Shown: positions 6,745 through 50,992 of the stretch, in pieces
How the letters are laid out: each line of letters begins with the position of its first letter
Position numbering within the stretch: position 1 is the first letter of the stretch
Origin: a virus
Taxonomy: Duplodnaviria; Caudoviricetes
Reading direction: 5' to 3' (one strand)
Length of the DNA stretch: 51,143 nt
Virus record (IMG/VR): IMGVR_UViG_3300014656_000038
Location: 1-51,143 of that record
Made by a program: the position numbers and the translations under genes
The notes under the pieces: generated by a model
Told to the model about the DNA's origin: nothing
What the model saw: only the letters and a program-made list of their open reading frames with translations
Databases searched by the model: none

Positions 6745-6844
6745 GTGAACGGCAACGTAAACATACCTTTCGTAGGACAAGGACTACCATGTATATACCC
6801 TTTGTAGGACAAAACGACTAAGTATGTTTTTGATTGCCGTTCAC
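6745..6844. repeat. res-like site A; ends in 11-bp inverted repeat GTGAACGGCAA/TTGCCGTTCAC
   Basis: Two ATACC(C)TTT..TAGGACAA subsites; 6745-6814 colinear with 14248-14317. Confidence 0.75.
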
Positions 6845-6865
6845 ATTATTTTAGGAGAAAAAATC

Positions 6866-7966
6866 ATGCTAAGAATTATAGAGTTTTTTGCTGGCATTGG
6901 TGCATATCACCAAGCCCTAAAAGAAATAAATATCCCACATGAAGTTGTTGGGATTTCAGAGATAGATGAGAATGCCATTAAAGCGTATCAAATACTTCAT
7001 GGCAGAACGAATGTGCTTGGTGACATAAGAAGAGTTAGAAGAACTCCTGATGCAGAGATGTGGTGCTATTCGTTTCCTTGTACTGACATATCTATTGCAG
7101 GGCAGATGAAAGGAATGGATCGTGAATCTAAGACACAATCAAGTTTATTGTGGGAAATCGAAAGATTGCTTCATGCAGCTGAATACAAACCCAGGTACTT
7201 GATCATGGAAAATGTTCCAACCCTAGTTGGCAAACGGTATTTAGAGCATTTCAAGATATGGCTAAGTATCCTAGAAGAAATGGGATATAAGAATTATTAC
7301 GATGTGTTGAATGCAAAAGATTATGGTGTCGCTCAAAATCGGAAGCGACTTTTTCTCGTTTCAATTATGGGGAATGAGAAGTATGTATTTCCAAAGAAGT
7401 TACCATTAACGAAAAAGTTGAGTGAATACTTAGATGATCAAGTAGATGAGAAATACTTTGTTTCTCCAAAAATGTTTAGATACTATACAGATACGAAAAA
7501 TAGAAATGGATTTGTAAGAGCAACCAGGTTCAGACCTCACGACAAAGACAGCAATTATGCTTGGACAATCACAACTAGAACTGGATCGACTCCAACGGAT
7601 AACTTTGTTATCGTTCCAGAAGCGACAAAAAAGGGCAGTACAACTGCCCAAGTAGGAGATGGCATCTACATCAACAGACCTCATCAAAAGCGTGGTGTAG
7701 TGCAAAAAGAATCGATTCCCACACTGAAGACATCTGTCAGTGATTTAGGAGTTGTTGTTCACAAAGATGAACTCATATCAATCCGTAAAATAACTCCTAA
7801 AGAAAGTTGGAGATTGATGGGATGGAGTGATTATGATTTCATGAGAGTTGATGGCAAAATAAGTGAAACAGCACTATATAGACTAGCTGGAAACTCTGTT
7901 GTTGTTACAGTACTTAAAGAAATGTTTAAAACTTTGTTTGTAGGTGAGATTAATGCCAAAGAATGA
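6866..7966 (+). CDS. Orphan DNA (cytosine-5) methyltransferase
   Basis: FFAGIG, FPCTD, ENV, QNRKR, YRLAGNS motifs; AGGAG RBS before ATG 6866. Confidence 0.93.
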   Translation: MLRIIEFFAGIGAYHQALKEINIPHEVVGISEIDENAIKAYQILHGRTNVLGDIRRVRRTPDAEMWCYSFPCTDISIAGQMKGMDRESKTQSSLLWEIERLLHAAEYKPRYLIMENVPTLVGKRYLEHFKIWLSILEEMGYKNYYDVLNAKDYGVAQNRKRLFLVSIMGNEKYVFPKKLPLTKKLSEYLDDQVDEKYFVSPKMFRYYTDTKNRNGFVRATRFRPHDKDSNYAWTITTRTGSTPTDNFVIVPEATKKGSTTAQVGDGIYINRPHQKRGVVQKESIPTLKTSVSDLGVVVHKDELISIRKITPKESWRLMGWSDYDFMRVDGKISETALYRLAGNSVVVTVLKEMFKTLFVGEINAKE

Positions 7967-8756
7967 GATACCAGCAAATCACTTTATAGTTGAATTCTAT
8001 TGGATGACTACAATGGGATTAAAGGGAAGCGAATTAAGGCTCTATGCCTTAATTTTTTCCTATTCCCAAGATACAAAAGGTGGATTCTTTGGATCCATCG
8101 AATATTTGGCTAATAGACTAGATATATCAAGAAGACAAGTTTTTAGATTGATTGACTTGCTAATTGAAAAAAAACTGATTGAGAAAAGTGAGTATTACAA
8201 AAATCATGTGAAATATGTTTCATTTGAAATAATCCCAAATGAATTCACTAGTGACAAAATGTCACTACCCATGACAAAACGTCACAAGGATGATGACAAA
8301 ATGTCAAAAGAACCAGTGTCAGAATGTCACTTAACCGATGACAAAATGACACCCAATAATAAAGAATATATTAAAGGTTTTGATATCAACACTATAGTAA
8401 AGGATGTATTAGATAAATCAGATATATTAGAGAAATTAGATAAAAGTAGCAAGCTAGAAGATGAAATAGCATTTTCTAAGAATCATGTATTAACCAGGTA
8501 CTTAGTGAATGCAAGATATCTAACGAAAACTGATGAGTTGGAGTTTTTCAGGTATGACAACTTCTTCAATAAGTTCATAGGTAAGAATGGTTTTGAATTT
8601 GATGATTACAAACTCTATGTTCAATACTTTATCTATCGAAATAAAGAACGGATAAAAAATTGGAAATTAAAGAGTGAGCCGATAGAAAATAAGTATGGAT
8701 ACTTTATAACAGCAATGGAGAGTGCAAGAAAAGAATTCAGCAGAAAAAAGCTATAA
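7953..8756 (+). CDS. Phage replication initiator (N-terminal wHTH)
   Basis: LKGSELRLYALI...SIEYLANRLDISRRQV HTH followed by DKMS repeats encoded by iterons. Confidence 0.8.
   Translation: MPKNEIPANHFIVEFYWMTTMGLKGSELRLYALIFSYSQDTKGGFFGSIEYLANRLDISRRQVFRLIDLLIEKKLIEKSEYYKNHVKYVSFEIIPNEFTSDKMSLPMTKRHKDDDKMSKEPVSECHLTDDKMTPNNKEYIKGFDINTIVKDVLDKSDILEKLDKSSKLEDEIAFSKNHVLTRYLVNARYLTKTDELEFFRYDNFFNKFIGKNGFEFDDYKLYVQYFIYRNKERIKNWKLKSEPIENKYGYFITAMESARKEFSRKKL
8251..8352. repeat. Five iterons RTGACAAAATGTCAC-like (putative replication origin)
   Basis: Imperfect palindromes starting at 8251, 8271, 8293, 8316, 8338 (20-23 bp period) inside the initiator gene. Confidence 0.8.
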
Positions 8757-8758
8757 AA

Positions 8759-8816
8759 TGGCGTTTTGGCGTTTTGGCGTTCAAAGATTGACTTAATGCA
8801 TATCCTGTGATAACAT
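8759..8816 (+). promoter_or_regulatory. RM operon promoter with 3x TGGCGTT(T/C) upstream repeats
   Basis: TTGACT(8788)-17 bp-TAACAT(8811) with extended TG; 8-bp tandem repeats 8759-8782. Confidence 0.6.
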
Positions 8817-8849
8817 AGAACTAAAATAACTTACAGATGAGGTGTAGTC

Positions 8850-10160
8850 ATGAAAGACCCTAGAATAAGTGTCAGAATATCACAAGATGAACATGAACAG
8901 TTAAAAGTATTGGTTGCAAAGCGAAGAACCAACATTAATCAATTTTTAACTGATTATATTAGAAACGAAATAAAGAAGGGTGAATTAAACAGGACAAAAT
9001 CAAAAATTGAGGGAGCAAAAGTGCTCTCTTTATTTGCCAACATTGGAGTCGCCGAAGCATTTTTTGAAGATATAGGTATTGATGTTGTTCTTGCTAATGA
9101 AATTGTTGAAAGAAGAGCAAAACTCTATCAAGAAATATATCCAAAAACTGAAATGAAGATTGGAGATATTACGAGTACTGCTATTCAAGAGTACTTAATT
9201 GCGCGTAGTAATGAACTAGGTGTTAATGTCATTATGGCTACTCCTCCATGCCAAGGAATGAGTACTGCTGGACGACAAGAAAAAGATGATGAACGAAATG
9301 ACTTAATTGTTCCAGTAGTTAAACTTATAAAAGAAATTAGTCCTAAATACGCATTTATAGAAAATGTTCCTTTACTATTTCAAACATCAATCAACTACAA
9401 AGATGAAGAAATTAACATTATAGAATTTATTCAAAAAGAATTAGGTAGAAAATATCGAGTTAACACTTATAAAATTGACACTAAGGATTATGGGGTCCCT
9501 CAAACAAGAGAAAGAGCAATCATACTTTTAAGTAGATCTGATGTTCCATATGAATGGGTTGTACCACCTAAAGAGGACAAAATTGTCACGATGCGAGATG
9601 CCATAGGAAATCTTCCTCCTTTAGATCCTCACATAAAGGATATAAGTCATGATGAGTTAATTAAGTTATTTCCAAATTATGAAGAACGAGCAAAAGCAGC
9701 ACATAAGATATCGAAATGGCATTTCCCACCAACTCATGTTAGAAGGCAAGTAGAGGTAATGATGCATACTGCTACAGGAAAAACGGCATTTGATAATAAA
9801 CCTGAATATAAACCACAGAAAGACAACGGAGAGTTTGTAAAAGGTTTTAAGAACACATACAAGAGACAAGAGTGGGATATTCCAGCTTACACCGTAACAA
9901 TGGACAATCGAAAAATCTCATCTCAGAATAACGTACACCCTGGAAGACCTATAGGAACTACACAGAGTGGAGCTATAATTTATAGTGATGCTAGAGCATT
10001 AACAGTTTACGAATTGATGTTAGTCAGTAGTATACCAAACGAATGGCCACTTCCAGAAAATACACCTGCAGCTTTCTTAAGATCTGTAATTGGGGAAGGT
10101 ATTCCACCTTTGTTTACTAGAAGAGTTTTTGAACAATTAAGAGGTGCAATATGGGAGTAA
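8850..10160 (+). CDS. C5 methyltransferase M1 with N-terminal ribbon-helix-helix domain (LlaJI-type RM)
   Basis: RISVRISQDEHEQLK RHH; LFANIG, PPCQG, ENV, PQTRER, IGEGIPP. Confidence 0.9.
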   Translation: MKDPRISVRISQDEHEQLKVLVAKRRTNINQFLTDYIRNEIKKGELNRTKSKIEGAKVLSLFANIGVAEAFFEDIGIDVVLANEIVERRAKLYQEIYPKTEMKIGDITSTAIQEYLIARSNELGVNVIMATPPCQGMSTAGRQEKDDERNDLIVPVVKLIKEISPKYAFIENVPLLFQTSINYKDEEINIIEFIQKELGRKYRVNTYKIDTKDYGVPQTRERAIILLSRSDVPYEWVVPPKEDKIVTMRDAIGNLPPLDPHIKDISHDELIKLFPNYEERAKAAHKISKWHFPPTHVRRQVEVMMHTATGKTAFDNKPEYKPQKDNGEFVKGFKNTYKRQEWDIPAYTVTMDNRKISSQNNVHPGRPIGTTQSGAIIYSDARALTVYELMLVSSIPNEWPLPENTPAAFLRSVIGEGIPPLFTRRVFEQLRGAIWE

Positions 10161-11302
10161 TCAAGGGTTTATCCTTGTTTGCAAATGTAGGTATCGCTGA
10201 AGCATATTTTGAGGAAATCGGTATAGATATATTAGTTGCTAATGAATTGAACCAACAACGAGCTGACTTGTACAGACACTTATATCCTAAAACTGAAATG
10301 ATTTGTGGCGATATAACTAATGATACAACTCGACAATTAATTATAGAAAAAGCATTAAAAAATGGAGTAGACTTTGTCATTGCAACTCCTCCATGCCAGG
10401 GAATGAGTGAAGCTGGAAACAGAGATCCTGATGATGTAAGAAATCAACTAATTTATTATGCAATTGATGTAATTAAAGCAGTAAAACCTGATTACATACT
10501 TCTTGAAAATGTTCCTAAAAACCTAATAACTTATATAAAAGTAAATGGAGAAAAAATTTTAATTCCAGATTATATAAAAAACGAATTACAATTGGAGTAT
10601 AATTTTAATAAAGACTCGTTAATAATGGCAAAGGATCATGGTGTACCACAGTTACGAGAAAGGAATATTTTCTTGCTTGTAAGAAAAACTTTGAATATAA
10701 ATTGGGAATTCCCAAAAAAGGAACCAGAGGTCACACTTGAAGATGTTATTGGAGATCTCCCATCATTAGATCCACTTTTGCGTGAAGGGTTAGAATTAAC
10801 TCTTAAAATATTTCCTGATTTTATTTTAAAGAGAGAACTTGGACTTAAGGTATCTAAATGGCATAAACCTCCAAAGCATTCGTTAAAACAAGTTGAATGG
10901 ATGATGCATACTCCGACTGGTAAGTCAGCCACATTTAACGAATATTACTACCCCAAAAAAGATAATGGAAAAAGAGTTATTGCACATCATAACCATTATC
11001 GCAGAATGAATTGGAATAAACCTTCACGAACAATCACACAAAACAACGGTGTAATATCCTCATTAGCATGCGTTCATCCTGGTAGGCTTTATACCGAAAA
11101 TGAAGTTTCACTATATTCGGATCCAAGAGTATTAACGTTGCATGAAATCTTTATAGTAATGTCTTTGCCTGAAAATTGGAATATTCCCGAAGATTCCAAT
11201 GAAACATTTATCAGAAAAGTTATAGGTGAGGGAATACCACCTTTAATGGTAAAAAAAATTATGTTGGAACTAATAAATAAATTTCCAACCAAGGAGCGAT
11301 AA
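10151..11302 (+). CDS. C5 methyltransferase M2 (LlaJI-type RM)
   Basis: LFANVG, PPCQG, ENV, PQLRER, IGEGIPP; paralog of M1. Confidence 0.92.
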   Translation: MGVIKGLSLFANVGIAEAYFEEIGIDILVANELNQQRADLYRHLYPKTEMICGDITNDTTRQLIIEKALKNGVDFVIATPPCQGMSEAGNRDPDDVRNQLIYYAIDVIKAVKPDYILLENVPKNLITYIKVNGEKILIPDYIKNELQLEYNFNKDSLIMAKDHGVPQLRERNIFLLVRKTLNINWEFPKKEPEVTLEDVIGDLPSLDPLLREGLELTLKIFPDFILKRELGLKVSKWHKPPKHSLKQVEWMMHTPTGKSATFNEYYYPKKDNGKRVIAHHNHYRRMNWNKPSRTITQNNGVISSLACVHPGRLYTENEVSLYSDPRVLTLHEIFIVMSLPENWNIPEDSNETFIRKVIGEGIPPLMVKKIMLELINKFPTKER

Positions 11303-11304
11303 AA

Positions 11305-12990
11305 ATGGGGAAAATAGTAATGCCAAAAAATAGTGCAGTTTTATCAGAAATACATGCAGTCCTTCAAATATATAATGAAACAAATGACTGGATGACAAAT
11401 GATGTGTATGTTACAAAACTAAAAGAACTAATTGGGCCTGATCAATATTCTTCATCTTATACAAAAAAGGCACAAATAACTTCATATTTTGGATTCACTA
11501 TTTGGGAAGATATTAGTAATCCTCAATCAAGAAGAAAAATAACTGAAAGCGGAATAAGATTCTATAATGCCATTAGAAACGATAATTATTTGGAAATTCA
11601 AGAAGAAATAATGAATTCTCTTGAAAAAACAAATTTTGGCAGAAACAATTATGGATCACCACTTAGTAATTCAGATATTGAACCACCATGTTTATTTATA
11701 AGAGCTATTTTTGATTTAGACTACTTAACATATAAGGAGTTTGCTTTTATTTTATGGCAAATTGAAGATGTTGGAGCAAACTATTCTGATGTAATAGAAC
11801 AAGTAAAACAGTTAAGACATTCAGATTCATTTGTTCTAGATCCAGTTGCAACTAAATATACTGACGCAAAACCGATTATGATTCTAATTAGATGGGGATT
11901 TTTAAAAGAAGACAGTTCTTTAGCTGAGCAATCTAAAAAGATAATTATCAACGAAGAAGTACTTTCTAGATTCGAAAATAGACTTCGTAATTTGGTAATA
12001 TATAATATCGACAAAGATATTTCATTAAGACCGAGAGTTAACAATTTAAGTGCTAGACAATTGCACGAAAATGAAGAAACAGAAGAAGCCGTTGCAGAAT
12101 CCATTGTAACAGGGGCAGAAAACGTGATCTATTACGGAAACCCAGGATGTGGCAAAAGCTACAAAGTGAGTACTCTGTTTAGTGAAGTTAATTTTCATGT
12201 TGAAAGAACTACTTTTCATCCGGAGTTTAGCAACAGTGATTTTGTTGGACAGATAATACCAAAATTGGTTGGGGATAGAATTACATATACATTTGTACCT
12301 GGAGTTTTTGCTAGAATATTAAAGTATTCTATAACTAACCCAAGTAAGAAATGTGCTTTAATTATAGAAGAAATTAATCGTGGAAATGCTTCTGCAATAT
12401 TTGGAGATATATTTCAACTGCTTGATAGAGATTTGCTAGGTAAGAGTATATATAAGGTGAAAAACCCTATGCTAGAGCAGTATATAGGCTACAGTAGTAT
12501 TGAGATTCCATCAAACTTGTGGATAATTGCTACAATGAATACTAGTGACCAAAATGTTTTCACACTGGATACAGCTTTTAAAAGAAGATGGCAAATGGTA
12601 AAAATCAAAAATGAGTTTGATTTATCAGATCCATATACTGTCTCACTAGCAAATAGTTATGTTCCAGGGACACAGGTTAAATGGATGACATTTGTTAAAA
12701 AAGTTAATGAGAGTATTGTGTTGAATAACCCTATAGGTATTAATAGCGAAGATAAGCAAATTGGGATTTATTTCATTTCAAAGGAAATACTTACTCTAGC
12801 TGCTAATGAATTGAATGTATTAAAAATCAAACTATTCTCAGAAAAAGTATTAATGTATTTTTGGGATGATATTGCAAAGATCGATTCATCAATTTGGTTT
12901 GATGATAGTATTAGAACTCTAGATGATTTGTTAATGGGATTTGAAGTATATAAATTAGATGTTTTTAAGAACATCGATTTTTCGGTTTGA
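11305..12990 (+). CDS. McrB-like AAA+ NTPase restriction subunit (R1)
   Basis: Walker A GNPGCGKS, Walker B IIEEINR, TMNTSD McrB signature, AFKRRW. Confidence 0.9.
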   Translation: MGKIVMPKNSAVLSEIHAVLQIYNETNDWMTNDVYVTKLKELIGPDQYSSSYTKKAQITSYFGFTIWEDISNPQSRRKITESGIRFYNAIRNDNYLEIQEEIMNSLEKTNFGRNNYGSPLSNSDIEPPCLFIRAIFDLDYLTYKEFAFILWQIEDVGANYSDVIEQVKQLRHSDSFVLDPVATKYTDAKPIMILIRWGFLKEDSSLAEQSKKIIINEEVLSRFENRLRNLVIYNIDKDISLRPRVNNLSARQLHENEETEEAVAESIVTGAENVIYYGNPGCGKSYKVSTLFSEVNFHVERTTFHPEFSNSDFVGQIIPKLVGDRITYTFVPGVFARILKYSITNPSKKCALIIEEINRGNASAIFGDIFQLLDRDLLGKSIYKVKNPMLEQYIGYSSIEIPSNLWIIATMNTSDQNVFTLDTAFKRRWQMVKIKNEFDLSDPYTVSLANSYVPGTQVKWMTFVKKVNESIVLNNPIGINSEDKQIGIYFISKEILTLAANELNVLKIKLFSEKVLMYFWDDIAKIDSSIWFDDSIRTLDDLLMGFEVYKLDVFKNIDFSV

Positions 12991-12991
12991 T

Positions 12992-14197
12992 ATGGAACTG
13001 AAGAGTCTATGTAAAAACGCTGATAAAGGTAATTCTTTTGTAGGTATAAGCTATAGCGATAGTAAACCTTCAATATTTTTTCCTATGTCATACAACATAC
13101 CAGAAACGAATCAAGAGTGTCAAAAATCAATCTTTTCTTTATTTCGGACTATCTACATTTCTAACAAGTACAATTTATCTTCGAATTATCTGTATGATAG
13201 TCAAGATTTGAGAAACCAATTGCCAATTTATTCATATCTATGGATGCTAAATGATTATTTGAACAATGGGCTATACTCTAACAAAGATACAGAGTACAAG
13301 GTGAATGGATCAGGAAAAATAAACTGGAAGAAAACTATAAGGTCAGAACCTTATTTCAATGATAATCAAGCTATATTCTTAAAAACTATTACTCAAAGAC
13401 AAATTGATAAAAACGATATAATCACAAAAATACATATCAAGTGCCTGAATATTGCATATCAAACTATAGGCTTTATCTATGGAAATATCAATATTCCAAT
13501 TGATGATTTTAACTATGCAAATGACTATCTTTTGTCAATTTTGATTAAAGAACAATACAAAACATTCGTAGACAGAAAAAAACATCTAATCTCAGAAATG
13601 ATAAACATTTTAAAAGAATCGTCTTCTGAGATGGGACACAACAAAATTAAAAGTTTTGGAACATATAATTTTGAAGCAGTTTGGGAAGTGATAATTTCTA
13701 AATTGTTTGGAAATGAACCTGAAATTAGTAAGTTCTACCCAAGTTCGTTCTATATATTTGAAGAATCCACTGGTTATCAAAGAATGCAAAATTCAAAACT
13801 GCGCCCAGATACAGTTTTAAATTTTAATGATAAGCACTTTATACTAGATGCTAAGTATTACTCTTTCGAGTTGTATAACAATTTACCAAACAGTAGTGAT
13901 ATTCAAAAACAAATTACTTATTCAGATTTTATGAATACAATATTAAGTGATGGAGTAGATATATATAATGCATTTGTTTTACCTTATAACTCAAAAACAA
14001 GCAAACTGGGACCAAAAGAGATTAGATATATTGGATATGGTGAAACTGAGTGGCGCAATATGACTAATAAAACACATGATAAAGTTTCACTCATTCTACT
14101 CGATGTTCATTTTGCACTTGAAGCATTTTCAAAACATCAAACAAAACTGAAACTCGATTTATTAACTGATGAAATAAAAAAATCTACCAACCATTGA
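12992..14197 (+). CDS. McrC-like LlaJI-family restriction endonuclease (R2)
   Basis: GKINWKKT, FEAVWE, LRPD...LDAKYY, DIQKQITY. Confidence 0.88.
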   Translation: MELKSLCKNADKGNSFVGISYSDSKPSIFFPMSYNIPETNQECQKSIFSLFRTIYISNKYNLSSNYLYDSQDLRNQLPIYSYLWMLNDYLNNGLYSNKDTEYKVNGSGKINWKKTIRSEPYFNDNQAIFLKTITQRQIDKNDIITKIHIKCLNIAYQTIGFIYGNINIPIDDFNYANDYLLSILIKEQYKTFVDRKKHLISEMINILKESSSEMGHNKIKSFGTYNFEAVWEVIISKLFGNEPEISKFYPSSFYIFEESTGYQRMQNSKLRPDTVLNFNDKHFILDAKYYSFELYNNLPNSSDIQKQITYSDFMNTILSDGVDIYNAFVLPYNSKTSKLGPKEIRYIGYGETEWRNMTNKTHDKVSLILLDVHFALEAFSKHQTKLKLDLLTDEIKKSTNH

Positions 14198-14247
14198 CAC
14201 TTAAACTGACTTTCGTGCATTTATTGTTTTTTTGTCTGATAATAGGT

Positions 14248-14361
14248 GTGAACGGCAACACCAACATACCTTTCATAGGACAAAGCATACCTATTATATA
14301 CCCTTTATAGGACAAAATAGGGTATTGCCAATAACATGGCAAAAACCACAGTGAACGGCAA
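14248..14361. repeat. res-like site B
   Basis: GTGAACGGCAAC..ACATACCTTTCATAGGACAA..TATACCCTTTATAGGACAAAA; extra GTGAACGGCAA at 14351. Confidence 0.75.
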
Positions 14362-14388
14362 TAAAAAATACTAGATAATTGGTGTAAG

Positions 14389-14820
14389 ATGAAAGAGAAA
14401 ATAGCGAGATTTGGTGTTGATTATGCATCAAAAAAACTAGGATTATCAGATATAGAGGTCCATTTCAAGCCACAATCATTCTTTAAACATAATGATATCA
14501 ATGCAACATTTCTTCATGAAGGATACTACATTGTATTTAGTAGTGACTGGATAGAAAATGCAGATGAACTTGAAATCCTTAAGTGCAGTTTCCATGAAAC
14601 TAGACATGCATATCAAAGAGCTTGTATCGACTTCCCAAAACTCATCTATCACGATCCAAAGATTGTTGCTATTTGGGCTAAGGAGTTTGATAACTATAAA
14701 AGACCTGAGCATAATGATTATCTAAATCAAGAAATTGAAAAGGATGCAATAGCATTTAGCAATAAGCTGATTAACTATATAATTAATGAGACTAATGGAG
14801 GGTTGGGAAATGCCATTTAA
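14389..14820 (+). CDS. Small HExxH zinc metallopeptidase-like protein
   Basis: FHETRHAYQ and downstream EIEKDA. Confidence 0.7.
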   Translation: MKEKIARFGVDYASKKLGLSDIEVHFKPQSFFKHNDINATFLHEGYYIVFSSDWIENADELEILKCSFHETRHAYQRACIDFPKLIYHDPKIVAIWAKEFDNYKRPEHNDYLNQEIEKDAIAFSNKLINYIINETNGGLGNAI

Positions 14821-15082
14821 GAGTAATTCTATGGCAATAGAGGAACGAGTTGAGCAACTTGAATCCGAATTAGAGCCAAAGATAGTCAAAGAAATCTGTA
14901 AAGAATTAAAACTGAGTTCAGAACATGAGAAAATGACACTTCATGAAATCCATTACGCTTTAGGTAACCATTTAGGCTTCATCCATATTATCGAGAGAAT
15001 GAAAAAACGAATTTTAAGACGTGATTATGGGATTAGATGGAAAAGTCCTTCTGAATTAAATCCGGATTTTTTCTATGACTAA
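14810..15082 (+). CDS. Hypothetical protein
   Basis: GGAGG RBS, overlaps upstream stop. Confidence 0.65.
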   Translation: MPFKSNSMAIEERVEQLESELEPKIVKEICKELKLSSEHEKMTLHEIHYALGNHLGFIHIIERMKKRILRRDYGIRWKSPSELNPDFFYD

Positions 15083-15099
15083 AAGTGGAGATAAAAATA

Positions 15100-17499: not shown

Positions 17500-17504
17500 A
17501 ATAT

Positions 17505-41922: not shown

Positions 41923-41987
41923 TTAAATACAAGAACATTTTTTATAAGTAGAGAAAAATGTGTTTGAATAAATTGACGGTGAAAATA

Positions 41988-43256: not shown

Positions 43257-43348
43257 TGATCAAATAAGTATAGTTAAATTCAAATGTTTAATAAACAATT
43301 AACAAATGATATAATTATTTCTAAAGATACTATTTAAAGGGGAATAAT

Positions 43349-44368: not shown

Positions 44369-45180
44369 ATAAACCACAATTAATTGAATTTGGACTAACT
44401 GATAATAGTCTTGAAATATACGAAAGTCAAATAAAAAAATATAATGAAATTAGTGATTATATTTTTAAAGAAAAACAAAAACATAATAAAAGCGTAGTCA
44501 AAGCTTGTGTCATACCATCTTTGTTTTTTGTTCCTATTACATTTATTTTATGGGGAAGGTTAAATAATTATGGGGAAGGATCATCACTCTTTGTTTTTTT
44601 TATGTTAGTGGCAACGATAGCATATCCAATTATAATAAAGAAACTATTTTTCATAGAGTTGTATGCTTTAACGGATTTTGAAAAACGGAAAAAAAAGCAA
44701 TTTGAGAAAAATCTTAATTGTAAGAATAAAGATGATATCGTAGACAAAAATCTCGAAAAAAAAATACACGAGTTCAATTCAGCTATAGAAACGTATAAAA
44801 ACGCAACAGATAAATCTCGTCCTACATATTGGAAACTATTGACACACCGTCAATTTGAAATAGAAGTTGCAAATTTATACTCGTTGTTAGGTTATTCCAC
44901 TGTAGTAACAAAAGCAACCGGAGATGGTGGAATTGATGTGGTTATCAATAAGGATGGGAAAAAAACAGGTATACAATGTAAACAGCATTCTAATCCAGTT
45001 GGACCCAATGATTTTAGAGCATTGATTGGTGTTATTGCAAGTCAAGATTATGATCATGGTATACTTGTTTCCCTCAATGGATTTACATCTGCAGTATTGG
45101 ATGAAGCAAGAAAATCACGAATAAGAGTTGAATTGATTTCTTGTAGTGATTTGGTATCGTTAGCAAAGAATATTAAATGA
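44365..45180 (+). CDS. Membrane-anchored Mrr-like nuclease
   Basis: Two TM segments; FEIEV..DGGID..IQCKQ. Confidence 0.82.
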   Translation: MNKPQLIEFGLTDNSLEIYESQIKKYNEISDYIFKEKQKHNKSVVKACVIPSLFFVPITFILWGRLNNYGEGSSLFVFFMLVATIAYPIIIKKLFFIELYALTDFEKRKKKQFEKNLNCKNKDDIVDKNLEKKIHEFNSAIETYKNATDKSRPTYWKLLTHRQFEIEVANLYSLLGYSTVVTKATGDGGIDVVINKDGKKTGIQCKQHSNPVGPNDFRALIGVIASQDYDHGILVSLNGFTSAVLDEARKSRIRVELISCSDLVSLAKNIK

Positions 45181-45385
45181 ATCCATTGATTATCAAAGAA
45201 CCTATCTAGCTTATTACTTAAAGAAAGAAATGTCATACTTAGTGTTTCCACTTTTTTACAGAGGTCTATCCCGAACATCTATTAAACTCGTTTAACTCAA
45301 AAGTTTAAACTTTAATTAACATCAATCCCTACATTTGAAGAAATGGTGCGAGTGTTACATATAACATTTTTAAAAGGAGAAAAAT

Positions 45386-45598
45386 ATGAAATGTCCAGAA
45401 TGCGGTGCAGAACTTAAGGAAACTGAAACTTGTTTTGATTGTATCGAATGTGGTTATTTTGAGGTTAAAGAACCATATTTATCACTAGGTAAACAGAATG
45501 AAGAGTTTCTTAAAAGACTTAGAAATGGAGATCCTTTGGATGATGAAAATGATGATGAGGATTTAGATGATTCTGATGATGAAGATAGTGATGACTAG
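45386..45598 (+). CDS. Small zinc-ribbon protein with acidic tail
   Basis: CPEC/CIEC, D/E-rich C-terminus, AAGGAG RBS. Confidence 0.75.
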   Translation: MKCPECGAELKETETCFDCIECGYFEVKEPYLSLGKQNEEFLKRLRNGDPLDDENDDEDLDDSDDEDSDD

Positions 45599-45712
45599 TC
45601 CAAATTTTAAAGTAACTCTTTTTAAGTAATAGAACGCAGCATGACACATGAGACATAATACCTTCATTAATCATTGTTCATTTTAAAAACTAACAATAGT
45701 GTTTTTGGGTCA

Positions 45713-45785
45713 CAGTTTCCCACTGTGTCCTCCAAAGGGTATGTTGGTGGGCAAAAGAACACTTTTAAGTGTTTTCATCAAAAAA
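45713..45785. repeat. res-like site C
   Basis: TGTCCTCCAAAGGGTATGTTGGTGGGCAAAAGAACACTTTTAAGTGTTTTCAT, near-identical to 50934-50992. Confidence 0.75.
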
Positions 45786-45989
45786 TATATTACGAACCAA
45801 ATTGAGGCAAGAATAAATCTTTTCAAAAAGACATAATCAAAAAAAATGGGCTAAACCGCTTTCTGTGGAAGTGTCCATTTTTTTAATTAGCATGAAAAAT
45901 GAATATATTGCATGATATAATAATATTAATAAAAAGTCAATTTTTTTCGGGGGATTTATACTATGGAAAAAATCACAACTAAATACCCC

Positions 45990-46017
45990 TTGACAAGTTA
46001 ATTTAGATGTGTATAAT
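45990..46017 (+). promoter_or_regulatory. Housekeeping-type promoter of sigma gene
   Basis: TTGACA-16 bp-TATAAT. Confidence 0.7.
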
Positions 46018-46061
46018 TCATATATCAACACATAATACAAAAAATAGAATAGGAGAAACAA

Positions 46062-46982
46062 TTGAAATTGGAAAAAGAACCAACCATTTTTGATTTGGAG
46101 ATAATTGAAGAAGAATTATCAAATCCAAAAGATTTTGTTAATTTAAGTGATCCATTAAGTATCTATTTAAAGGATATTGGACAAGTTAAGTTACTGACAA
46201 GAGAAGAAGAAATCGAACTTGCTAAAAGGGTATCAATGGCTCGTGATTCTGCAGATGAAAAGATTAGCAAACTAGGAAAAGAAGCTAGAGACAGATTAAT
46301 TGTGGCTAATCTAAGATTGGTTGTGAGTGTAGCTAAGAAATATACATATTCCAATGTGCCATTCATGGATCTTATTCAAGATGGAACAATGGGGCTTATG
46401 AAAGCTGTAGATAGATATCAAGTTGAGAAAGGGTTTAAGTTCTCGACATATGCAACTTGGTGGATTATACAATCAATTTCACGGTCAATCTCTAACAATT
46501 CAAGAACTATTCGGATTCCAGCACATGTTTATGATATGTTATCTAAAGTTCGAAGAGTTAAAAGAAACTATGTTAATGAGCACGGCATAGAACCAGACAT
46601 TGAAACTGTCTCCAAAATCACTGGAATATCAATAATTACATTAAAAATGATTAATCTATACATAGAGGATACTTTATCATTGGATAATCCAATTGGAGAT
46701 GGAGATTCTACTCTTAAGGATTCTACTGAAGATAAAAACAACCCGGATCCTGAAGAATACAATAAGATAAAAGAACTCGAAGAATATGTTATTGAAATTT
46801 TGCAAGTATTAAATGAACGAGAGCAAACCGTTATTAAAATGAAATTTGGAATAGAATCTGATGAAAAAACACTAGAACAAATTGGCCAATATTTTGGCAT
46901 TTCGAAGCAGCGTGTAGGACAAATTGAGAGTAGAGCAATTGAAAAATTAAAGAAACAAATGAATATCTTGAATAATAAGTAA
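46062..46982 (+). CDS. RpoD-like sigma-70 factor (accessory paralog lacking region 1.1)
   Basis: DPLSIYL, NLRLVVSVAKKY, DLIQDG, GFKFSTYATWWI, RTIRIP, KTLEQIG. Confidence 0.92.
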   Translation: MKLEKEPTIFDLEIIEEELSNPKDFVNLSDPLSIYLKDIGQVKLLTREEEIELAKRVSMARDSADEKISKLGKEARDRLIVANLRLVVSVAKKYTYSNVPFMDLIQDGTMGLMKAVDRYQVEKGFKFSTYATWWIIQSISRSISNNSRTIRIPAHVYDMLSKVRRVKRNYVNEHGIEPDIETVSKITGISIITLKMINLYIEDTLSLDNPIGDGDSTLKDSTEDKNNPDPEEYNKIKELEEYVIEILQVLNEREQTVIKMKFGIESDEKTLEQIGQYFGISKQRVGQIESRAIEKLKKQMNILNNK

Positions 46983-47038
46983 ATCAACAACATGTTTTAC
47001 AAAAAATCAGAAAACTGAAAACATGAGGTATATGGATT

Positions 47039-48550
47039 ATGGAAATTTTATTGCTCATTCTAATAACTGGCTTGTTTTATATGATAGGACCTGTAATATT
47101 TGTTAAACTACGTGGAAAGGTAACTCGTGGCAAAGCTTTTTTATTTGCATTATTAAATTGGATTATAATTTATGCAATATTTATGACTATTTATTATGCG
47201 ATTTTTCCTGGTGATGCAGACACCACTGTTAATTCAGCACCAGCATTATGGTTATTCGTTTCTTGGCGATATATGACTGTTAAAAATGTTACTAAAAATA
47301 CAACATCTCAAAAAAATACACCAAATTCGATTGATGATGTTGAAAGAAAATTTAGCCTAAGTCTCAAGGATTGCAAAAGGAAAACATTTGCGAGAGGAAA
47401 AATTAAATATGCAGTATTTATATTTGGGTCCGATGACAATAATCAACAAATAGATGATATTTCAGCTTTAATAGTAGTTAATTCGTCATCTAATCAATAC
47501 AGGTATTTTTCACTAGAAGAACCATTTGGAACCTCGTATACACTTTACGAACGTATTTTTGATAAAAAAGGTAAAGAAATAAAACTTATTAGTTATGGTG
47601 ATGTGGAATTAAGTAATATAGATTCATTATCATTAGAGAACAATACTGTGGGAACACCTTTAATTGATCATATTAATACCATAATCATAAAGAAGACTAA
47701 ACCAGAAGCATCATGGTCAGGGGATGGATTAATATGGATGAATCAAACAATGCAAGAAAAGCTTGGGGAAATTGAAAAAACAACTAATCAAACCGATGAT
47801 TATATGGGAAATTATTATAAAGAAATTGAAAAGATTGTAAAAGAAAAAACTCAACAAGTTAATGACTTTAATGAAGCAGTATTGTTATTCGAAAACCAAA
47901 ATACTAAACCAGAAGCAATCAAGATTTTCACAAGATTGGCTAATGAAAACAATCATGATCGCTCACAAAATTACTTAGCTAGTTATTTCTTTTATGATAA
48001 AGATGATAAACCGAAAGCCATTGAATGGTGGGAGAAATCTGCTTCACAGGGTAATGAAGAAGCTATTAAAGAGTTGAAAGCTAACAAATCTAAATTATCA
48101 AAAACAAATAGTGCTTCAAAGAATAAAGAACTACTTGATGGACTTCACAAGGAGCTTTTTACAGCATGGAATCAAGAAGCTATTAATAAGGGGAAATCTG
48201 TTAGTCAAGAAACAAAGAGCAAATTATCAAGAATGTTTAGACAATCATTTGATAAGTGTTTCTCTTGCGAGAAAACAACTATGGGCGATATTCCATGTAA
48301 TTATTATTTAATGATGCCAAGTACTGATATGTTTATTGGGAAAATAAGGGTAATGATTGAAACATTGAATACTCCAAAAAGATATTTAGTTGCAGAATAT
48401 TCCAATAATTCATCCATAATGCTGTGTGAGTGGTTTTTTGAAAACGGAATTGAGATAAAACATGTAAATTATGGACCAATAATAAGCAATAGTTATGAGG
48501 AGATAAATTTTACTAGCCATTTTAAACGTAAAATTGAAGAGATTTTATAA
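47039..48550 (+). CDS. Membrane protein with Sel1-like repeat and duplicated unknown domain
   Basis: N-terminal TMs; KAIEWWEKSASQG. Confidence 0.7.
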   Translation: MEILLLILITGLFYMIGPVIFVKLRGKVTRGKAFLFALLNWIIIYAIFMTIYYAIFPGDADTTVNSAPALWLFVSWRYMTVKNVTKNTTSQKNTPNSIDDVERKFSLSLKDCKRKTFARGKIKYAVFIFGSDDNNQQIDDISALIVVNSSSNQYRYFSLEEPFGTSYTLYERIFDKKGKEIKLISYGDVELSNIDSLSLENNTVGTPLIDHINTIIIKKTKPEASWSGDGLIWMNQTMQEKLGEIEKTTNQTDDYMGNYYKEIEKIVKEKTQQVNDFNEAVLLFENQNTKPEAIKIFTRLANENNHDRSQNYLASYFFYDKDDKPKAIEWWEKSASQGNEEAIKELKANKSKLSKTNSASKNKELLDGLHKELFTAWNQEAINKGKSVSQETKSKLSRMFRQSFDKCFSCEKTTMGDIPCNYYLMMPSTDMFIGKIRVMIETLNTPKRYLVAEYSNNSSIMLCEWFFENGIEIKHVNYGPIISNSYEEINFTSHFKRKIEEIL

Positions 48551-48583
48551 GATATAATTTATAATAAACCACGATATAGGACG

Positions 48584-49027
48584 GTGAGAAAAATGTTAAG
48601 TTTCCTTTTTTCTATTAGAAAAATTAAGAAAAATAAACCTGGATATTTATCACCAATGCAGATAGTAAATGGAGTTGTAAACTTGGTAGATGCTAAAAGA
48701 AAATTAAATAACCGTGAGTTCGAGTTGGTACATTTCATTCATCTAGAAATAAGTAAATATAATGAAAAAAAACTATTCAATAGTTATATGGAATATCTTG
48801 AATTTTTATCATATTTGATATGTCAGTTTGACATTATAATTCCATATTACAAAATTTGTGGGAATCCTAATTATGTGAATTCTATAGACATGAATGATGA
48901 AAATGAAAAGCATATCTACAGACTAAAATCAATAGAGCACCTTAAAAACAACATCTATAAATTCGAAGGAGACACTGTTTGGGATCAAATGATAATTAAA
49001 TTTAGAACAGTTTTCTATGGTTTTTAG
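48584..49027 (+). CDS. Hypothetical protein
   Basis: ORF with AGGA RBS, GTG start. Confidence 0.6.
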   Translation: MRKMLSFLFSIRKIKKNKPGYLSPMQIVNGVVNLVDAKRKLNNREFELVHFIHLEISKYNEKKLFNSYMEYLEFLSYLICQFDIIIPYYKICGNPNYVNSIDMNDENEKHIYRLKSIEHLKNNIYKFEGDTVWDQMIIKFRTVFYGF

Positions 49028-49090
49028 GTTAATAATATGATAGTGAGATCAATATGAAAAAGACCTTTTAGAAAAATAAAGCATCCATGA

Positions 49091-49378
49091 TTGTATTGGT
49101 GGATTACTTTGATTATCGTTATAGTCATTAATACTTTTATTGCGGACACTCTTGGAGTAGAGCCACAAAATTTGTACATTGTTAATGAATTAATGTTATT
49201 TTTTATGCCACTACAAGATAAGAAAGTACCTCACAAACAAACAAAAAATGACGATTGGAATAGTAAAACCATTGAAGAAAAGAGAACACAAATTGAAAAA
49301 GCAATGAATCAAAGAATGAACGAAATGAGAAATGATGGTATTGATTTTGATAAGGATCTTAATGAAGTGGCGCAATGA
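49091..49378 (+). CDS. Hypothetical membrane protein, possibly 5'-truncated
   Basis: TTG start directly after an in-frame stop, no clear RBS. Confidence 0.4.
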   Translation: MYWWITLIIVIVINTFIADTLGVEPQNLYIVNELMLFFMPLQDKKVPHKQTKNDDWNSKTIEEKRTQIEKAMNQRMNEMRNDGIDFDKDLNEVAQ

Positions 49379-49448
49379 ATCAATGATTATAACACTGGAC
49401 TGCTATGAAAAAGTGTAAAATAAATGCATTCAAAAGGAGGGAAATATT

Positions 49449-50705
49449 ATGTGGTTTTTATGGGGATTATTGATGTGGTTTGGTTGTCATACAGCATTGA
49501 ATCTATGCTTGTCGTTTTCAAGGAAATACAAAGATAGTAATTATGGAATGGACTTATATGTTGCTATTGGTGCTGGAGTGGCTTGCGTAGGTGCAACAAT
49601 TTTTGCGTTTTCATATCTTGACAAGGAAATTGCTTTGTTTATAGGTGGTGCTATTGGTTTTCTAACTGGTGGATGGCATTTTAATCTCAATAAGAAAGTT
49701 GAAACGTTAAAGTCAACTCTCGCAAAAGATGAATTTTTACAATCAAACAGAACAAAATATGATGAAGTGGATGATGATGAAACATTATCAGGTCTTGCAG
49801 AGGAAATGGAGCGTGCAAAAAATGACCCCGTATTAAAAGAGTTAATGTCGCAGTTCGGTGGAATGTCTGGAAAACAAATTTTCGGTAAGAATTTTATCAT
49901 GGACGAAAAAGAGTTTGAAAAAGTTCAAAAACAACACCCTTGGACGATGCAATCAAGCATAACATTTGCAAACAAACAAAGAAGTGGTAAAGATTGTCAA
50001 CTTGATTTTTGGGAAAGTTTATCAATGATTTCTTGCTTTATCTTTGGTGCTATGGGTTTTGAAAAAGATTTAGACAAGGCAGAGCAAATGCTAAAACATT
50101 TGATACCGCCTCAAGCACCGCACGAACAAATAATGTTTATTACTGCACATACAAACATTTTGCGTGGAACAATTTATGTATACAAAAAAGAATATGTTAA
50201 AGCGTGTTATTATTTAATTTCAGGGTTAAAACTCGGCACAAATCTTTCCACCCCATATTGTGATTTTATTCGCTATATAATTGACAAAATATTAAAACTA
50301 CCAAACCAAAAGGCAAAGTATACAGGTGTTGGGTATAGTGCAAAACAATATATGGGTTCGACGACTGAGGTAAACCAAGGCGAATATGATATATGGGCAA
50401 CAATGCAAATTGTTCCTTGTTTAGAAGGTGATAATGGCGAGGTTGTCTTAGCTCATCAAGGATCAAGTGGTTTATATGGTTATTTAGAAAAACGTGGTGA
50501 AGAAAATGGAATTGACATTTACGAAACTTATATTATTGATATTAACTTTAATTTGAAAACTATTAAGTTCTATTGCAATAATTATTTTTTATCAAAAGAG
50601 CCAAAGCCGATAAATATACCAAATGGCTTTCATATCAACAAAGATTATGCTCCAAATATACAAGGTTCGATTATAGGCAGCAATGGCCAATTCATAGTTA
50701 AGTAA
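49449..50705 (+). CDS. Membrane protein with Sel1/TPR-like helices
   Basis: AGGAGG RBS, three TMs, GFEKDLDKA. Confidence 0.7.
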   Translation: MWFLWGLLMWFGCHTALNLCLSFSRKYKDSNYGMDLYVAIGAGVACVGATIFAFSYLDKEIALFIGGAIGFLTGGWHFNLNKKVETLKSTLAKDEFLQSNRTKYDEVDDDETLSGLAEEMERAKNDPVLKELMSQFGGMSGKQIFGKNFIMDEKEFEKVQKQHPWTMQSSITFANKQRSGKDCQLDFWESLSMISCFIFGAMGFEKDLDKAEQMLKHLIPPQAPHEQIMFITAHTNILRGTIYVYKKEYVKACYYLISGLKLGTNLSTPYCDFIRYIIDKILKLPNQKAKYTGVGYSAKQYMGSTTEVNQGEYDIWATMQIVPCLEGDNGEVVLAHQGSSGLYGYLEKRGEENGIDIYETYIIDINFNLKTIKFYCNNYFLSKEPKPINIPNGFHINKDYAPNIQGSIIGSNGQFIVK

Positions 50706-50841
50706 AGTTTTTCTCGGCTCAAGGGAAACAATTTGGCTTGTGGTTGGTGTGGTGCATTTATGACGTCAAGGCGAGAGGGGAGCAAACAAAGCAAGTCCAC
50801 TCTATTTTATAGTAAGGTTGTCTTTAATATTTTATATGTTG

Positions 50842-50992
50842 CATTGTCCTACACTTTCCTCCGTTGTCCTCTAAAAGGTATGTTGATGGACAAAAGAACA
50901 CTTTTCTTTCATTGTCCTACACTTTCCTCCGTTGTCCTCTAAAAGGTATGTTGATGGACAAAAGAACACTTTAAAGTGTTTTCATAAAAAAA
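50842..50992. repeat. res-like site D, 63-bp tandem duplication (50842-50904, 50910-50972)
   Basis: Two identical copies, each with TGTCCTCTAAAAGGTATGTTGATGGACA. Confidence 0.85.

Follow-up and report, generated by a model that had tools for sequence, protein, structure and literature searches.

Two kinds of conserved boundary module with a common 20-bp motif at cargo hot spots of a virus and its host

The repeat family in the viral DNA analyzed here (the window, all 51,143 nucleotides of IMG/VR record IMGVR_UViG_3300014656_000038) consists of two kinds of boundary module, an A/B type and a C/D type, which have a 20-bp motif in common. The most likely reading, with a joint probability of about 0.5, is that this motif is a core common to two non-coding modules, that A and B form a control region and C and D are accretion remnants, and that the modules belong to a mobile-element family of free-living Acholeplasmataceae, in the genus that includes Peloplasma aerotolerans. 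The host of the virus is an Acholeplasma-like bacterium. Cargo turnover at the boundary modules is observed. Coordinates below refer to the plus strand unless stated otherwise.

The pattern AYATACCYTTNNNAGGACA, with at most one mismatch, matched the window seven times, at 6761, 6793, 14264 and 14296 on the plus strand and at 45726, 50865 and 50933 on the minus strand. Shuffled sequences gave a mean of 0.00 matches, and none of 100 shuffles reached seven. As the preliminary description had stated, all seven copies lie between long open reading frames and long direct repeats are present: 6736-6814 and 14239-14317 are 82% identical over 79 nt, 45700-45765 and 50839-50904 are 74% identical, and 50839-50904 and 50907-50972 are 98% identical. 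The 28-bp palindrome with 11-6-11 geometry held for the C/D copies (7 of 11 arm positions match, as read from the printed sequences) but not for A and B, where the right arm reads ..GTTGCCGTTCAC. The prophage is not the sole carrier of the motif; copies adjoining ordinary genes occur on contigs C13, C58 and C69 of the same genome. Ten of the 38 genomes of the genus are motif-positive, and a reversed control gave no match across all 38. Conserved flanks around the motif were kept in 15 of 25 public stretches, themselves found by the pattern, and the copy spacings of 32 bp and 68 bp are kept across genomes.

Modules A and B and the defence-gene hot spot

The A/B modules are about 100-125 bp long, are oriented in the sense of the genes and carry, flanked by GTGAACGGCAA boxes, two motif copies at a 32-bp spacing. 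Module A (6745-6844) lies between the xis gene and the first C5 methylase gene and contains GTGAACGGCAAC (6745-6756), motif copies at 6761-6780 and 6793-6812 and an inverted TTGCCGTTCAC (6834-6844). Directly upstream is the gene for an excisionase-like HTH_17 protein of 64 aa (6535-6729), and further upstream that for a 310-aa tyrosine recombinase with Phage_integrase and SAM-like N-terminal domains (4861-5793). A DnaD-like replication initiator gene (7944-8756), with iteron-like repeats at 8267-8351, lies downstream. Two related prophages carry site A without a breakpoint there: G134 is collinear with window positions 94-8740 at 82% identity, and contig C268 of G190 with positions 1288-7930 at 92%. 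Because A is no breakpoint in either relative, the A-B segment is not a cassette. In this intergenic stretch both motif copies and the GTGAAC boxes are conserved and the 12-bp spacer is variable. The same position was compared by eye in eight distinct homologous modules of tyrosine recombinase, xis and replication genes (C66, C57, L080, L081, L084, L085, L053 and L054). It holds a conserved ..TAATGCTTGTGAACGG-type box, followed on the 3' side by lineage-specific repeats and then the start of the replication gene. Site A thus appears, from this arrangement, to occupy a regulatory position. A simple scan for sigma-70-type promoters toward the downstream genes found none at A or B; promoter-like sites there were not above those in shuffles.

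Module B (14238-14362) is composed of GATAAT (14238-14243), GTGAACGGCAAC (14248-14259), motif copies at 14264-14283 and 14296-14315 and GTGAACGGCAAT (14351-14362). It closes a variable restriction and defence block that extends from the end of the DnaD-like gene, the last gene common with G134 and G190, to the left edge of B. In the window this cargo (8850-14197) encodes two C5 methylases, an AAA_5 ATPase and a LlaJI-type endonuclease. At this position G190 carries another set of methylase and ATPase genes, and likeness returns at window position 14231, with 97% identity over 14231-14413 and different genes on both sides of B. Five distinct defence blocks, in the window and four other genomes, end at the left edge of B. 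B-type copies stand 3' of a BREX block in G151, of a Schlafen-helicase plus Dcm/HATPase/Z1/DUF4420 block in G003 and of an NA37/RelA/helicase/T5orf172 block in G024; in all three the copy is followed by the gene for a 222-aa protein (88-96% identical). The B-type module is a conserved right-hand anchor of a defence-gene hot spot.

In the preferred reading, a GATAAT-like box, two to three GTGAACGGCAA boxes and the two 20-bp motif copies at the head of gene blocks would most likely act as a promoter/operator-type control region on which a putative DNA-binding protein assembles. Plain regulation leaves unexplained why the 20-bp core occurs in both promoter-side and 3'-side modules.

Modules C and D and the tRNA-Leu arrays

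The C/D modules are oriented opposite to A/B, lie at the 3' end of gene blocks and consist of one or two 68-bp units plus an A/T-rich hairpin. Module C (45697-45776) has one unit, with its motif at 45726-45744 on the minus strand and its hairpin at 45757-45776; it is without a look-alike of a tRNA end, and its likeness to other copies stops at ..CATCAAAAAAT. Module D (50839-51060) has two units (50839-50904 and 50907-50972), a hairpin (50964-50983), a 29-bp tRNA 3'-end look-alike terminating in CACCA (GCGAG..GGCACCA, 50994-51022) and a terminator-like hairpin (51035-51060). Among 20 distinct copies, conservation of C/D-type modules ends at ..CACCA. The D junction is cut by the end of the window, where the assembly also breaks; the last 43 bases of the window are the start of contig C41. 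The block between C and D (46062-50705) encodes a sigma-70 family factor (46062-46982), whose own consensus promoter lies at 45990-46017, and four proteins without a Pfam family.

The prophage of the window stands behind a tRNA-Leu(CAG) gene (39-123), and related prophages in G134 and G190 behind fakA and tRNA-Leu(GAG). Downstream of fakA and tRNA-Leu in relatives, stacked cargo blocks that lack an integrase are joined by C/D-type modules. The order in G005 is fakA, tRNA-Leu(GAG), a unit, a type I restriction-modification block with GIY-YIG, a unit, an LRR protein and two units. G011 has the same order, with an ABC-2 block and a Fic/GNAT block as its cargo. The same kinds of joint occur in L028 and L050; cargo was annotated in G005 and G011. 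In L028 the flank 3' of the module is the flank found 3' of tRNA-Leu in the window, and that of G005 is also found 3' of tRNA-Leu in a contig of run X4. Such stacks fit tandem accretion of tRNA-targeting elements. No integrase or recombinase gene was found beside the arrays in the stretches examined, and the accretion model therefore needs a recombinase acting in trans. Judging from their anatomy, C and D would most likely be what remains of the right end (arm plus core) of elements which integrated at tRNA-Leu and were stacked by tandem accretion, with the prophage lying between the tRNA gene and such a stack.

The order of unit subtypes bears on how C and D arose. Joints elsewhere usually read first-type unit, linker, second-type unit and hairpin. 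The window has a first-type unit and hairpin, then the block, then second-type unit, linker, second-type unit and hairpin, as would be expected if a circle had inserted at such a joint. In our reading, the unit subtypes bound the putative crossover to about 13 bp, which is short for homologous exchange and is a point against the preferred reading.

Recombinases and rival explanations

Two large serine recombinases of 505 and 540 aa, with Resolvase and Recombinase domains, are encoded on the minus strand at 333-3465. Two copies of GGGGTAATGTGGTTCCGAAC (272-333) adjoin the end of this gene region and one more lies on contig C58 behind a flank of tRNA-Leu(GAG) type, suggesting a candidate attachment box of these enzymes. 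We looked for the right end of the prophage and did not locate it.

The preliminary description had taken the repeats for res-like recombination sites bracketing cargo, perhaps served by the tyrosine recombinase at 4861-5793, and as a whole it is partly supported. Gene-content breakpoints in relatives do fall at the left edge of B and at C/D joints, but not at A (0 of 2 relatives). That recombinase is not co-distributed with the motif: close homologs (at least 43% identity) occur in 4 of 10 motif-positive and in 5 motif-negative genomes, and it is absent from the examined contig stretches of G003 and G151 with B-type sites. Inversion through the opposite orientation of A/B and C/D was not seen, relatives being collinear wherever aligned. 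No A-with-B junction was present in contigs of other samples, which cannot show rare forms.

A tentative rival takes the motif units themselves to be recombination sites (core or arm-type). A recombinase in trans would load and unload cargo blocks lacking an integrase there, in the prophage as well as at the tRNA-Leu locus of the chromosome, as in an integron-like or SCC-like cassette platform. The enzyme could be the tyrosine recombinase together with the excisionase-like protein, or else the two large serine recombinases. In the G005 and G011 arrays a direct unit copy bounds every block, and one unit lies about 45 nt behind an intact tRNA-Leu with flanks of its own. A stretch of 22 bases is identical between the D units and the tRNA-proximal C58 copy; this stretch looks like a recombination core and would count against control region plus accretion. 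The subtype order at C and D, the GTGAACG boxes (beside xis, in B-type sites and in tRNA-proximal copies), the Xis-like genes on the G003 and G151 elements with B-type sites and the four paralogous modules of G000 (two serine recombinases, a tyrosine recombinase and xis) point the same way. Against it are the intact A position, the distribution of tyrosine recombinase homologs and the arrays without an adjoining recombinase gene; moreover, conservation at the joints stops at ..CACCA and not at the unit, which favors the tRNA-end look-alike as crossover. Also against it, two of the four differences in cargo between the window and G190, a relative at 92-97% identity, adjoin another repeat, rep2. 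The right edge of a GmrSD-type endonuclease gene (15748-17499), variable cargo absent from G190, touches rep2 and not the motif. Site-specific recombination is plausible for C/D and unproven at all four sites, and the motif as a crossover point for the neighboring tyrosine or serine recombinases is an unproven candidate reading.

The rep2 edges would also suit an improbable alternative, in which the modules are mere conserved linkers of promoter or terminator DNA, the motif has no further function, and cargo is swapped between related elements by ordinary homologous or illegitimate recombination. In G190 a 55-bp duplication of a gene start, not motif copies, flanks the insertion after B, the C/D hairpin lies between an A run and a T run and to us resembles a two-way terminator, and another terminator-like hairpin lies 3' of D. 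This explanation conflicts with conservation far above the surroundings: B keeps 97% identity amid cargo that differs on both sides, C/D modules from MAGs with different family names are about 90% alike, and both copy spacings persist. Still further down in probability, and very doubtful, is a structured non-coding RNA, for example an A/B leader or a C/D 3' element with a tRNA-like end, to which the ..CACCA end and possible pairing of GTGAACGGCAA and TTGCCGTTCAC boxes would lend themselves. Rfam gave no family at gathering score in the window or three loci, only chance-level matches with E up to 10. Folding gave z-scores of -1.44 and -1.26. For 20 copies the covariation term from RNAalifold was -0.06, and 1 of 20 pairs was compensatory; box changes at GTGAAC in L068 and L070 were not compensatory in our reading, and ARAGORN found no tRNA at the module.

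Likeness to known systems

Tandem accretion at tRNA/tmRNA genes, with integrase-less remnants, is established in other taxa according to reports on Streptococcus ICE CIMEs (PMC5704250), Dehalococcoides ssrA islands (PMC3146451) and tycheposon islands (bioRxiv 10.1101/2020.12.28.424599). As in those systems, differing cargo blocks without integrase are stacked directly behind a tRNA gene, each joint being a direct repeat plus a tRNA 3' end look-alike; paired serine recombinases within the locus also recall Dehalococcoides. Unlike in those systems, the joint here is a long composite of 68-bp unit(s), hairpin and 29-bp look-alike, the look-alike has little beyond ..CACCA in common with the real tRNA, the unit also occurs behind the intact tRNA, the 20-bp core recurs within the prophage in a promoter-side module, and no cognate integrase was found.

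The res sites of serine resolvases and the 11-6-11 core sites of tyrosine recombinases (dif, lox, pdif modules), with which the preliminary description compared the repeats, resemble the motif in short TGTCC half-sites in several copies, and 11-6-11 cores in the imperfect palindrome of C and D. The res-like interpretation fails, however: there is neither a small resolvase gene nor an arrangement of inverted pairs in three subsites, A and B lack the palindrome, and recombinase and site are not co-distributed.

Cox of P2 and Apl of 186 are excisionase/repressors that bind direct repeats at the early promoter and attP. Here, too, a small HTH gene lies directly upstream of module A, the same box is repeated at promoter-side modules and att-like joints, its direct repeats lying a whole number of helical turns apart. 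The protein differs in being of HTH_17 type, with putative binding, and no such gene was found within the 28 kb examined around the G024 B-type sites.

Temperate phages such as P2/P4-like phages carry defence hot spots or "morons", with variable anti-phage genes between conserved flanks. The related prophages likewise have different restriction and defence sets at one position with conserved flanks, and more single-gene insertions at operon boundaries; what differs is the distal flank, a discrete and highly conserved non-coding module about 125 bp long with repeated boxes. The other elements with the module are otherwise divergent, their serine recombinases being 42-52% and their DnaD-like proteins 37-40% identical to those of the window. 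Modules A-D are conserved boundary modules at cargo hot spots of virus and host, for defence and other genes.

The prophage and its two kinds of repeat module

The window accounts for nearly the whole of a 51-kb contig (C31) of genome G000, which comprises 89 contigs (2.13 Mb, 32.5% G+C). It starts with a tRNA-Leu(CAG) gene (39-123), followed by two large serine recombinases of 505 and 540 aa (333-3465, minus strand), a cI-like repressor, a second HTH protein, a tyrosine recombinase (4861-5793), a 250-aa protein and an HTH_17 excisionase-like (Xis-like) protein (6535-6729). A C5 methylase and a DnaD-like initiator containing internal iterons come next, and then cargo consisting of two further C5 methylases, an AAA_5 ATPase and a LlaJI-type endonuclease. 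Three small genes, a GmrSD endonuclease, a ParB-methylase and a SAM synthetase lead to the terminase, portal, protease, capsid and tail genes, which are followed by two Mrr-type nucleases, a sigma-70 family factor (46062-46982) and four proteins without a Pfam family. This gene content identifies the window as a tailed prophage. Its host is placed among free-living Acholeplasmataceae on the basis of motif-pattern matches in public records. Genome G011, from the same genus, is the Peloplasma aerotolerans M4Ah record; in the accessible part of the Peloplasma description (PMC11122141) the words 'prophage', 'mobile', 'restriction' and 'integrase' are absent.

Several features of the prophage were recorded alongside. 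Four TGACAAAAyGTCA-like repeats within the DnaD-like gene (8267-8351) are probably the iterons of the phage origin. The promoter of the sigma-70 gene behind site C is a perfect TTGACA-16-TATAAT, and G000 contains a 61% identical paralog (C62:552-1523) and a partial one (C39:4772-5323). For the four proteins of the block between sites C and D, Pfam and PHROGs gave no name, and there was a single PHROG match of unknown function; the 418-aa protein of this block had a single weak match among 171 other genomes of the family. A comparison of 45300-51143 with a public phage collection returned just three weak 3% matches.

The 20-bp core AYATACCYTTNNNAGGACA occurs seven times in the window, against 0.00 copies expected by chance, and always between long ORFs. 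The intergenic repeat family of the preliminary description, including its positions and its long direct repeats, is confirmed. The 28-bp palindrome that was assigned to it holds for sites C (45697..45776) and D (50839..51060) only; by eye, the arms in D agree at 7 of 11 positions, and sites A (6745..6844) and B (14238..14362) lack the inverted right arm. The motif is also found outside the prophage on three contigs of G000 (C13, C58 and C69), where it stands beside ordinary genes (AAA_14 ATPase, Cthe_2159 protein, GNAT/NUDIX genes).

Comparison of all copies with their flanks separated two kinds of module. The A/B type is oriented like the genes and consists of a GATAAT-like box, GTGAACGGCAAC, the motif, about 12 variable bases, a second motif and an inverted GCCGTTCAC; in A and B the two direct 20-bp copies are 32 bp apart, and B-type copies have an additional third GTGAACGGCAAT after the inverted GCCGTTCAC. 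The C/D type is oriented against the genes and occupies the 3' ends of gene blocks, with one or two 68-bp units, an A/T-rich hairpin (GAACACTTnAAGTGTTC) and a 29-bp element, GCGAGTTTATTTGTGCTCCTATGRCACCA. Its conservation ends at CACCA (20 distinct copies, 17 loci). Site C is truncated to unit and hairpin, and site D is complete and has two units. A terminator-like hairpin comes after the 29-bp element of D and then, on contig C41, a -10-like sequence and four 20-bp iterons (the last two by eye). The window ends within junction D, where the assembly breaks; all genomes but one were MAGs or drafts, which break at these repeats. The repeat family is real, and its members are biologically meaningful boundary modules at cargo hot spots.

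One B-type copy (L068, G172:C1) differs from the window in a small detail. When its positions 2640-2680 are aligned with 14322-14362 of the window, the inverted GCCATTCAC and GTGAACGGC boxes enclose a 15-bp spacer that is flipped, perhaps by a small inversion or by template switching at a hairpin.

A probable early control region and a defence hot spot

The view that A and B bracket a cassette fails at site A, which is uninterrupted in two relatives. Genome G134 contains the left 8.7 kb of the prophage at 82% identity, and G190 (contigs C268 and C47), a 92-97% relative of the prophage, is collinear over 1288-7930 of the window, A included. Site A bounds nothing that varies. As in the operator region of a phage regulator, repeated boxes ahead of an operon are conserved like a footprint and the spacers vary, at A between the window and G134 and also among the B-type copies of five other loci. 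Further evidence comes from eight distinct homologous modules of tyrosine recombinase, xis and replication gene, which lie on two contigs of G000 (C66 and C57), at four loci of the same genus (L080, L081, L084 and L085) and at two loci of two other genera (L053 and L054). The stretch from xis to the replication gene opens with a conserved ..TAATGCTTGTGAACGG-type box (by eye), which is followed by lineage-specific repeats; L053 and L054 show a palindrome sharing the word ATATACCCTT. A probably occupies a regulatory position, with the appearance of an early control region. In a consensus scan, however, neither A nor B had a sigma-70 promoter facing the downstream genes; by eye, all A/B copies have a GATAAT-like box ahead of the GTGAAC box.

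Site B presents a different picture. The DnaD-like protein of G190 is just 58% identical to that of the window, and the stretch 8850-14197 is exchanged in G190 for a Dcm-Eco57I-type methylase, an AAA_21 ATPase and three unknown genes. The similarity restarts at 14231, the left edge of B, with 97% identity. A 2.75-kb insertion right after B in G190 encodes an LRR protein of the BspA type and a 235-aa protein, and lies between two copies of 55 bp from the start of the next gene. Further B-type modules are present in four genomes (G151, G003, G024 and G172) and in one MAG (L047). At the three of these five loci with annotated cargo (G151, G003 and G024), the gene sets ahead of the module are BREX; Schlafen-helicase with Dcm/HATPase/Z1/DUF4420; and NA37/RelA/helicase/T5orf172. 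One and the same 222-aa protein follows the module in 3/3 of them with 88-96% identity. The layout in G003 and G151 is two serine recombinases, a rep2 pair, an xis-like gene, a DnaD-like gene, a defence block and the B module, with element proteins that are only 37-52% identical to those of the window. Since differing cargo lies ahead of a conserved module in the relatives, B marks the far, conserved border of a defence hot spot, in which different defence genes occupy one position between conserved flanks in the window, G190, G151, G003 and G024.

G190 is also without GmrSD (15600-17499) and without the minus-strand AIG2-like gene (25973-27568); both differences adjoin copies of rep2, a separate repeat family, and not the motif. 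Rep2 (AGTCTTCAGTTTGACC) occurs four times in the window (0.05 expected), at 3719-3734 on the minus strand and at 17508-17523, 22114-22129 and 27590-27605 on the plus strand. These copies stand ahead of middle and late gene blocks, and 3/4 of them (3719, 22114 and 27590) have a TAcAAT/TAGAAT box 24 nt after the TTGACC of rep2. In G003 and G151 two rep2 copies in inverted orientation separate the serine recombinases from the xis/DnaD genes. Rep2 may be the type of promoter that the phage's sigma factor or a late activator uses.

Joints of cargo stacks behind tRNA-Leu

The C/D modules were found as joints of stacked cargo blocks. In G005 and G011, the two genomes with annotated array cargo, a stack lies behind fakA and tRNA-Leu(GAG). 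The order in G005 is the tRNA, a unit with its own flanks, a type I R-M block with GIY-YIG, a unit-hairpin-CACCA element, an LRR protein and an element of two units, hairpin and CACCA. The joints in G011 are the same as in G005, but they surround an ABC-2 block and a Fic/GNAT block. Loci L028 and L050 contain a tRNA-proximal unit and a double joint like those of G005 and G011. The tRNA-proximal unit is directly behind an annotated tRNA-Leu(GAG) in G005, G011 and L028; at L050 the tRNA scan lists no gene, and the flank of the unit reads as a tRNA end of the same kind.

Each joint carries the CACCA element, in the position expected of a tRNA end. The flank after the element in L028 is exactly the flank after the tRNA-Leu of the window, and the corresponding flank of G005 follows tRNA-Leu in a contig of sequencing run X4. 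By eye, the 29-bp element shares little with a real tRNA except the final 5-7 bases. No integrase was seen next to the C/D joints examined, in arrays that reach contig ends, where full elements could be missed.

As in the tRNA accretion systems (CIME, ssrA-island, tycheposon), a tRNA gene immediately precedes the array, and the content of the blocks varies between related genomes (G005 versus G011). The arrangement has the pattern of tandem accretion with integrase-less remnants, described in three reports (PMC5704250; PMC3146451; bioRxiv 10.1101/2020.12.28.424599). A role of the C/D joints in recombination by way of tRNA-end accretion is plausible. A tRNA-Leu gene also precedes the prophage in the window, G134 and G190, and in the latter two the prophage sits behind fakA-tRNA-Leu(GAG). 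Given this location, the simplest picture is that the phage inserted between tRNA-Leu and an already existing stack. The Mrr genes, the sigma block and contig C41, which contains a zinc-ribbon protein, a Schlafen/AlbA_2 protein and others, would then be members of that stack.

A second joint family behaves alike. It is made of GGGGTGCGTAA iterons ending in ..GCAACACA, which on C58 directly abut the flank of tRNA-Leu(GAG). Two to five direct GGGGTGCGTAA repeats with a 20-bp period, ending in ..AATAGGTCATGCAACACA, are present on seven contigs of G000 (C13, C41, C58, C63, C69, C88 and C89); beyond ..AATAGGTCATGCAACACA the arrays diverge or run into a tRNA-downstream-like flank with a terminator. 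No integrase was seen beside the two annotated arrays. The GGGGTGCGTAA arrays have the appearance of arm and core sequences from a second element family that targets tRNA-Leu.

Possible recombination at the modules and its meaning

G000 contains four paralogous modules (C31, C57, C25 and C66) with a tyrosine recombinase and an adjacent pair of serine recombinases, of which only one is present on the short contig C66; an xis-like and a replication gene accompany 3/4 of them and were not found on C25. Both tRNA-Leu loci are followed by GGGGTRATGTGGTTCCGAAC boxes (window 272-291 and 314-333; G000:C58:2686-2705), which are candidates for the site where the serine recombinases attach. Loci with the prophage (window, G134 and G190) have two boxes, and G005 and C58 have one. 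A search for the right attachment site of the prophage found no repetition of the left-end boxes in 39900-51143.

The motif itself may be the place of crossover, with features for and against. Between differing flanks, 22 bases are identical in the D units and in the tRNA-proximal copy on C58, as a crossover there would predict, and the order of unit subtypes points the same way. The usual joint consists of a first-type unit, a linker, a second-type unit and a hairpin; in the window a first-type unit and hairpin stand at C, followed by the sigma block, a second-type unit, a linker, a second-type unit and a hairpin at D. An inserted circle, with exchange within ~13 shared bases, would produce this arrangement (by eye). 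Against a crossover in the motif are the sharp end of conservation at CACCA, site A with its lack of any breakpoint, and the recombinases. No recombinase gene was found beside the arrays examined, and the tyrosine recombinase at 4861-5793, which the preliminary description had proposed as partner, overlaps poorly with the motif. Homologs with at least 43% identity are present in four of ten motif-positive genomes (G134, G151, G003 and G000) and also in five motif-negative ones (G008, G014, G004, G096 and G019), counts that carry little weight because the genomes are related and not independent. No homolog of this recombinase was found in the B-site-bearing stretches examined on G003:C34 and G151:C55. 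The Xis-like protein, from a generic family, occurs in 19 of 38 genomes of the genus, which are related, and in 8/10 of the motif-positive ones. Logan contigs of runs X4, X5, X6 and X2, compared with 1-20000 of the window, contained no joint of A with B, in data where rare forms are dropped from contigs and hence invisible, so that the result counts neither for nor against recombination. A contig from X4 (13311-14354) spans B unchanged and one from X5 (6540-6984) spans A unchanged; the single weak joint (6717->15091; depth 2.5 vs 109, one side 21 letters) is away from the motif.

The modules were also compared with known types of site. The original reading as res sites does not stand, as there is neither a neighbouring small resolvase nor a three-subsite layout. 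The serine recombinases of the window are both large and at least 3.3 kb from A, unlike those of Tn3/gamma-delta; the ten Resolvase-domain matches in G000, all but one weak partial match, are in open frames of 507-582 aa. In place of three inverted pairs of ~12-bp half-sites, A/B have two direct 20-bp copies and C/D direct 68-bp units. A dif- or lox-like tyrosine-recombinase core (11-6-11) disagrees with arms that are not kept in all copies and with a recombinase that does not co-occur. An integron would need a head of integrase and promoter, and the arrays begin at fakA-tRNA-Leu; none of the seven Phage_integrase matches in G000 is on C13, C58 or C69. Integron cassettes, typically one ORF without a promoter and with a folded attC behind it, also differ from these blocks, which hold 2-6 genes (e.g. 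a complete type I R-M) with no fold or covariation signal and a -10-like sequence behind D (C41, by eye). A structured RNA was rejected because neither a covariance-model match nor covariation was obtained, and a CRISPR-like 68-bp period because two copies are 98% identical throughout. Finally, the motif is unlikely to be the promoter of the phage sigma factor, as the sigma gene has its own consensus promoter and C and D are directed away from the genes.

A further reading is a common cassette platform in free-living Acholeplasmataceae and their prophages. Integrase-less blocks of defence and accessory genes, each closed by a joint of unit, hairpin and tRNA end, would be captured and released by a recombinase acting in trans, which elements with two large serine recombinases and a tyrosine recombinase/Xis pair would supply, and the 20-bp motif would be a common protein-binding word at the chromosomal tRNA-Leu stack and the internal defence hot spot of the prophage. 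We consider this unlikely, at a probability of roughly one in eight.

Should the modules prove to be active sites, they would reveal how restriction, BREX, GmrSD and other defence genes are exchanged in ready-made blocks by wall-less, small-genome bacteria and their phages, and they would add an example from Mycoplasmatota to the tRNA-linked, integrase-less cargo stacks of other phyla. Even on a cautious reading, the modules account for the assembly breaks at these places and are practical markers for defence hot spots and island joints in genomes and MAGs of Acholeplasmataceae.
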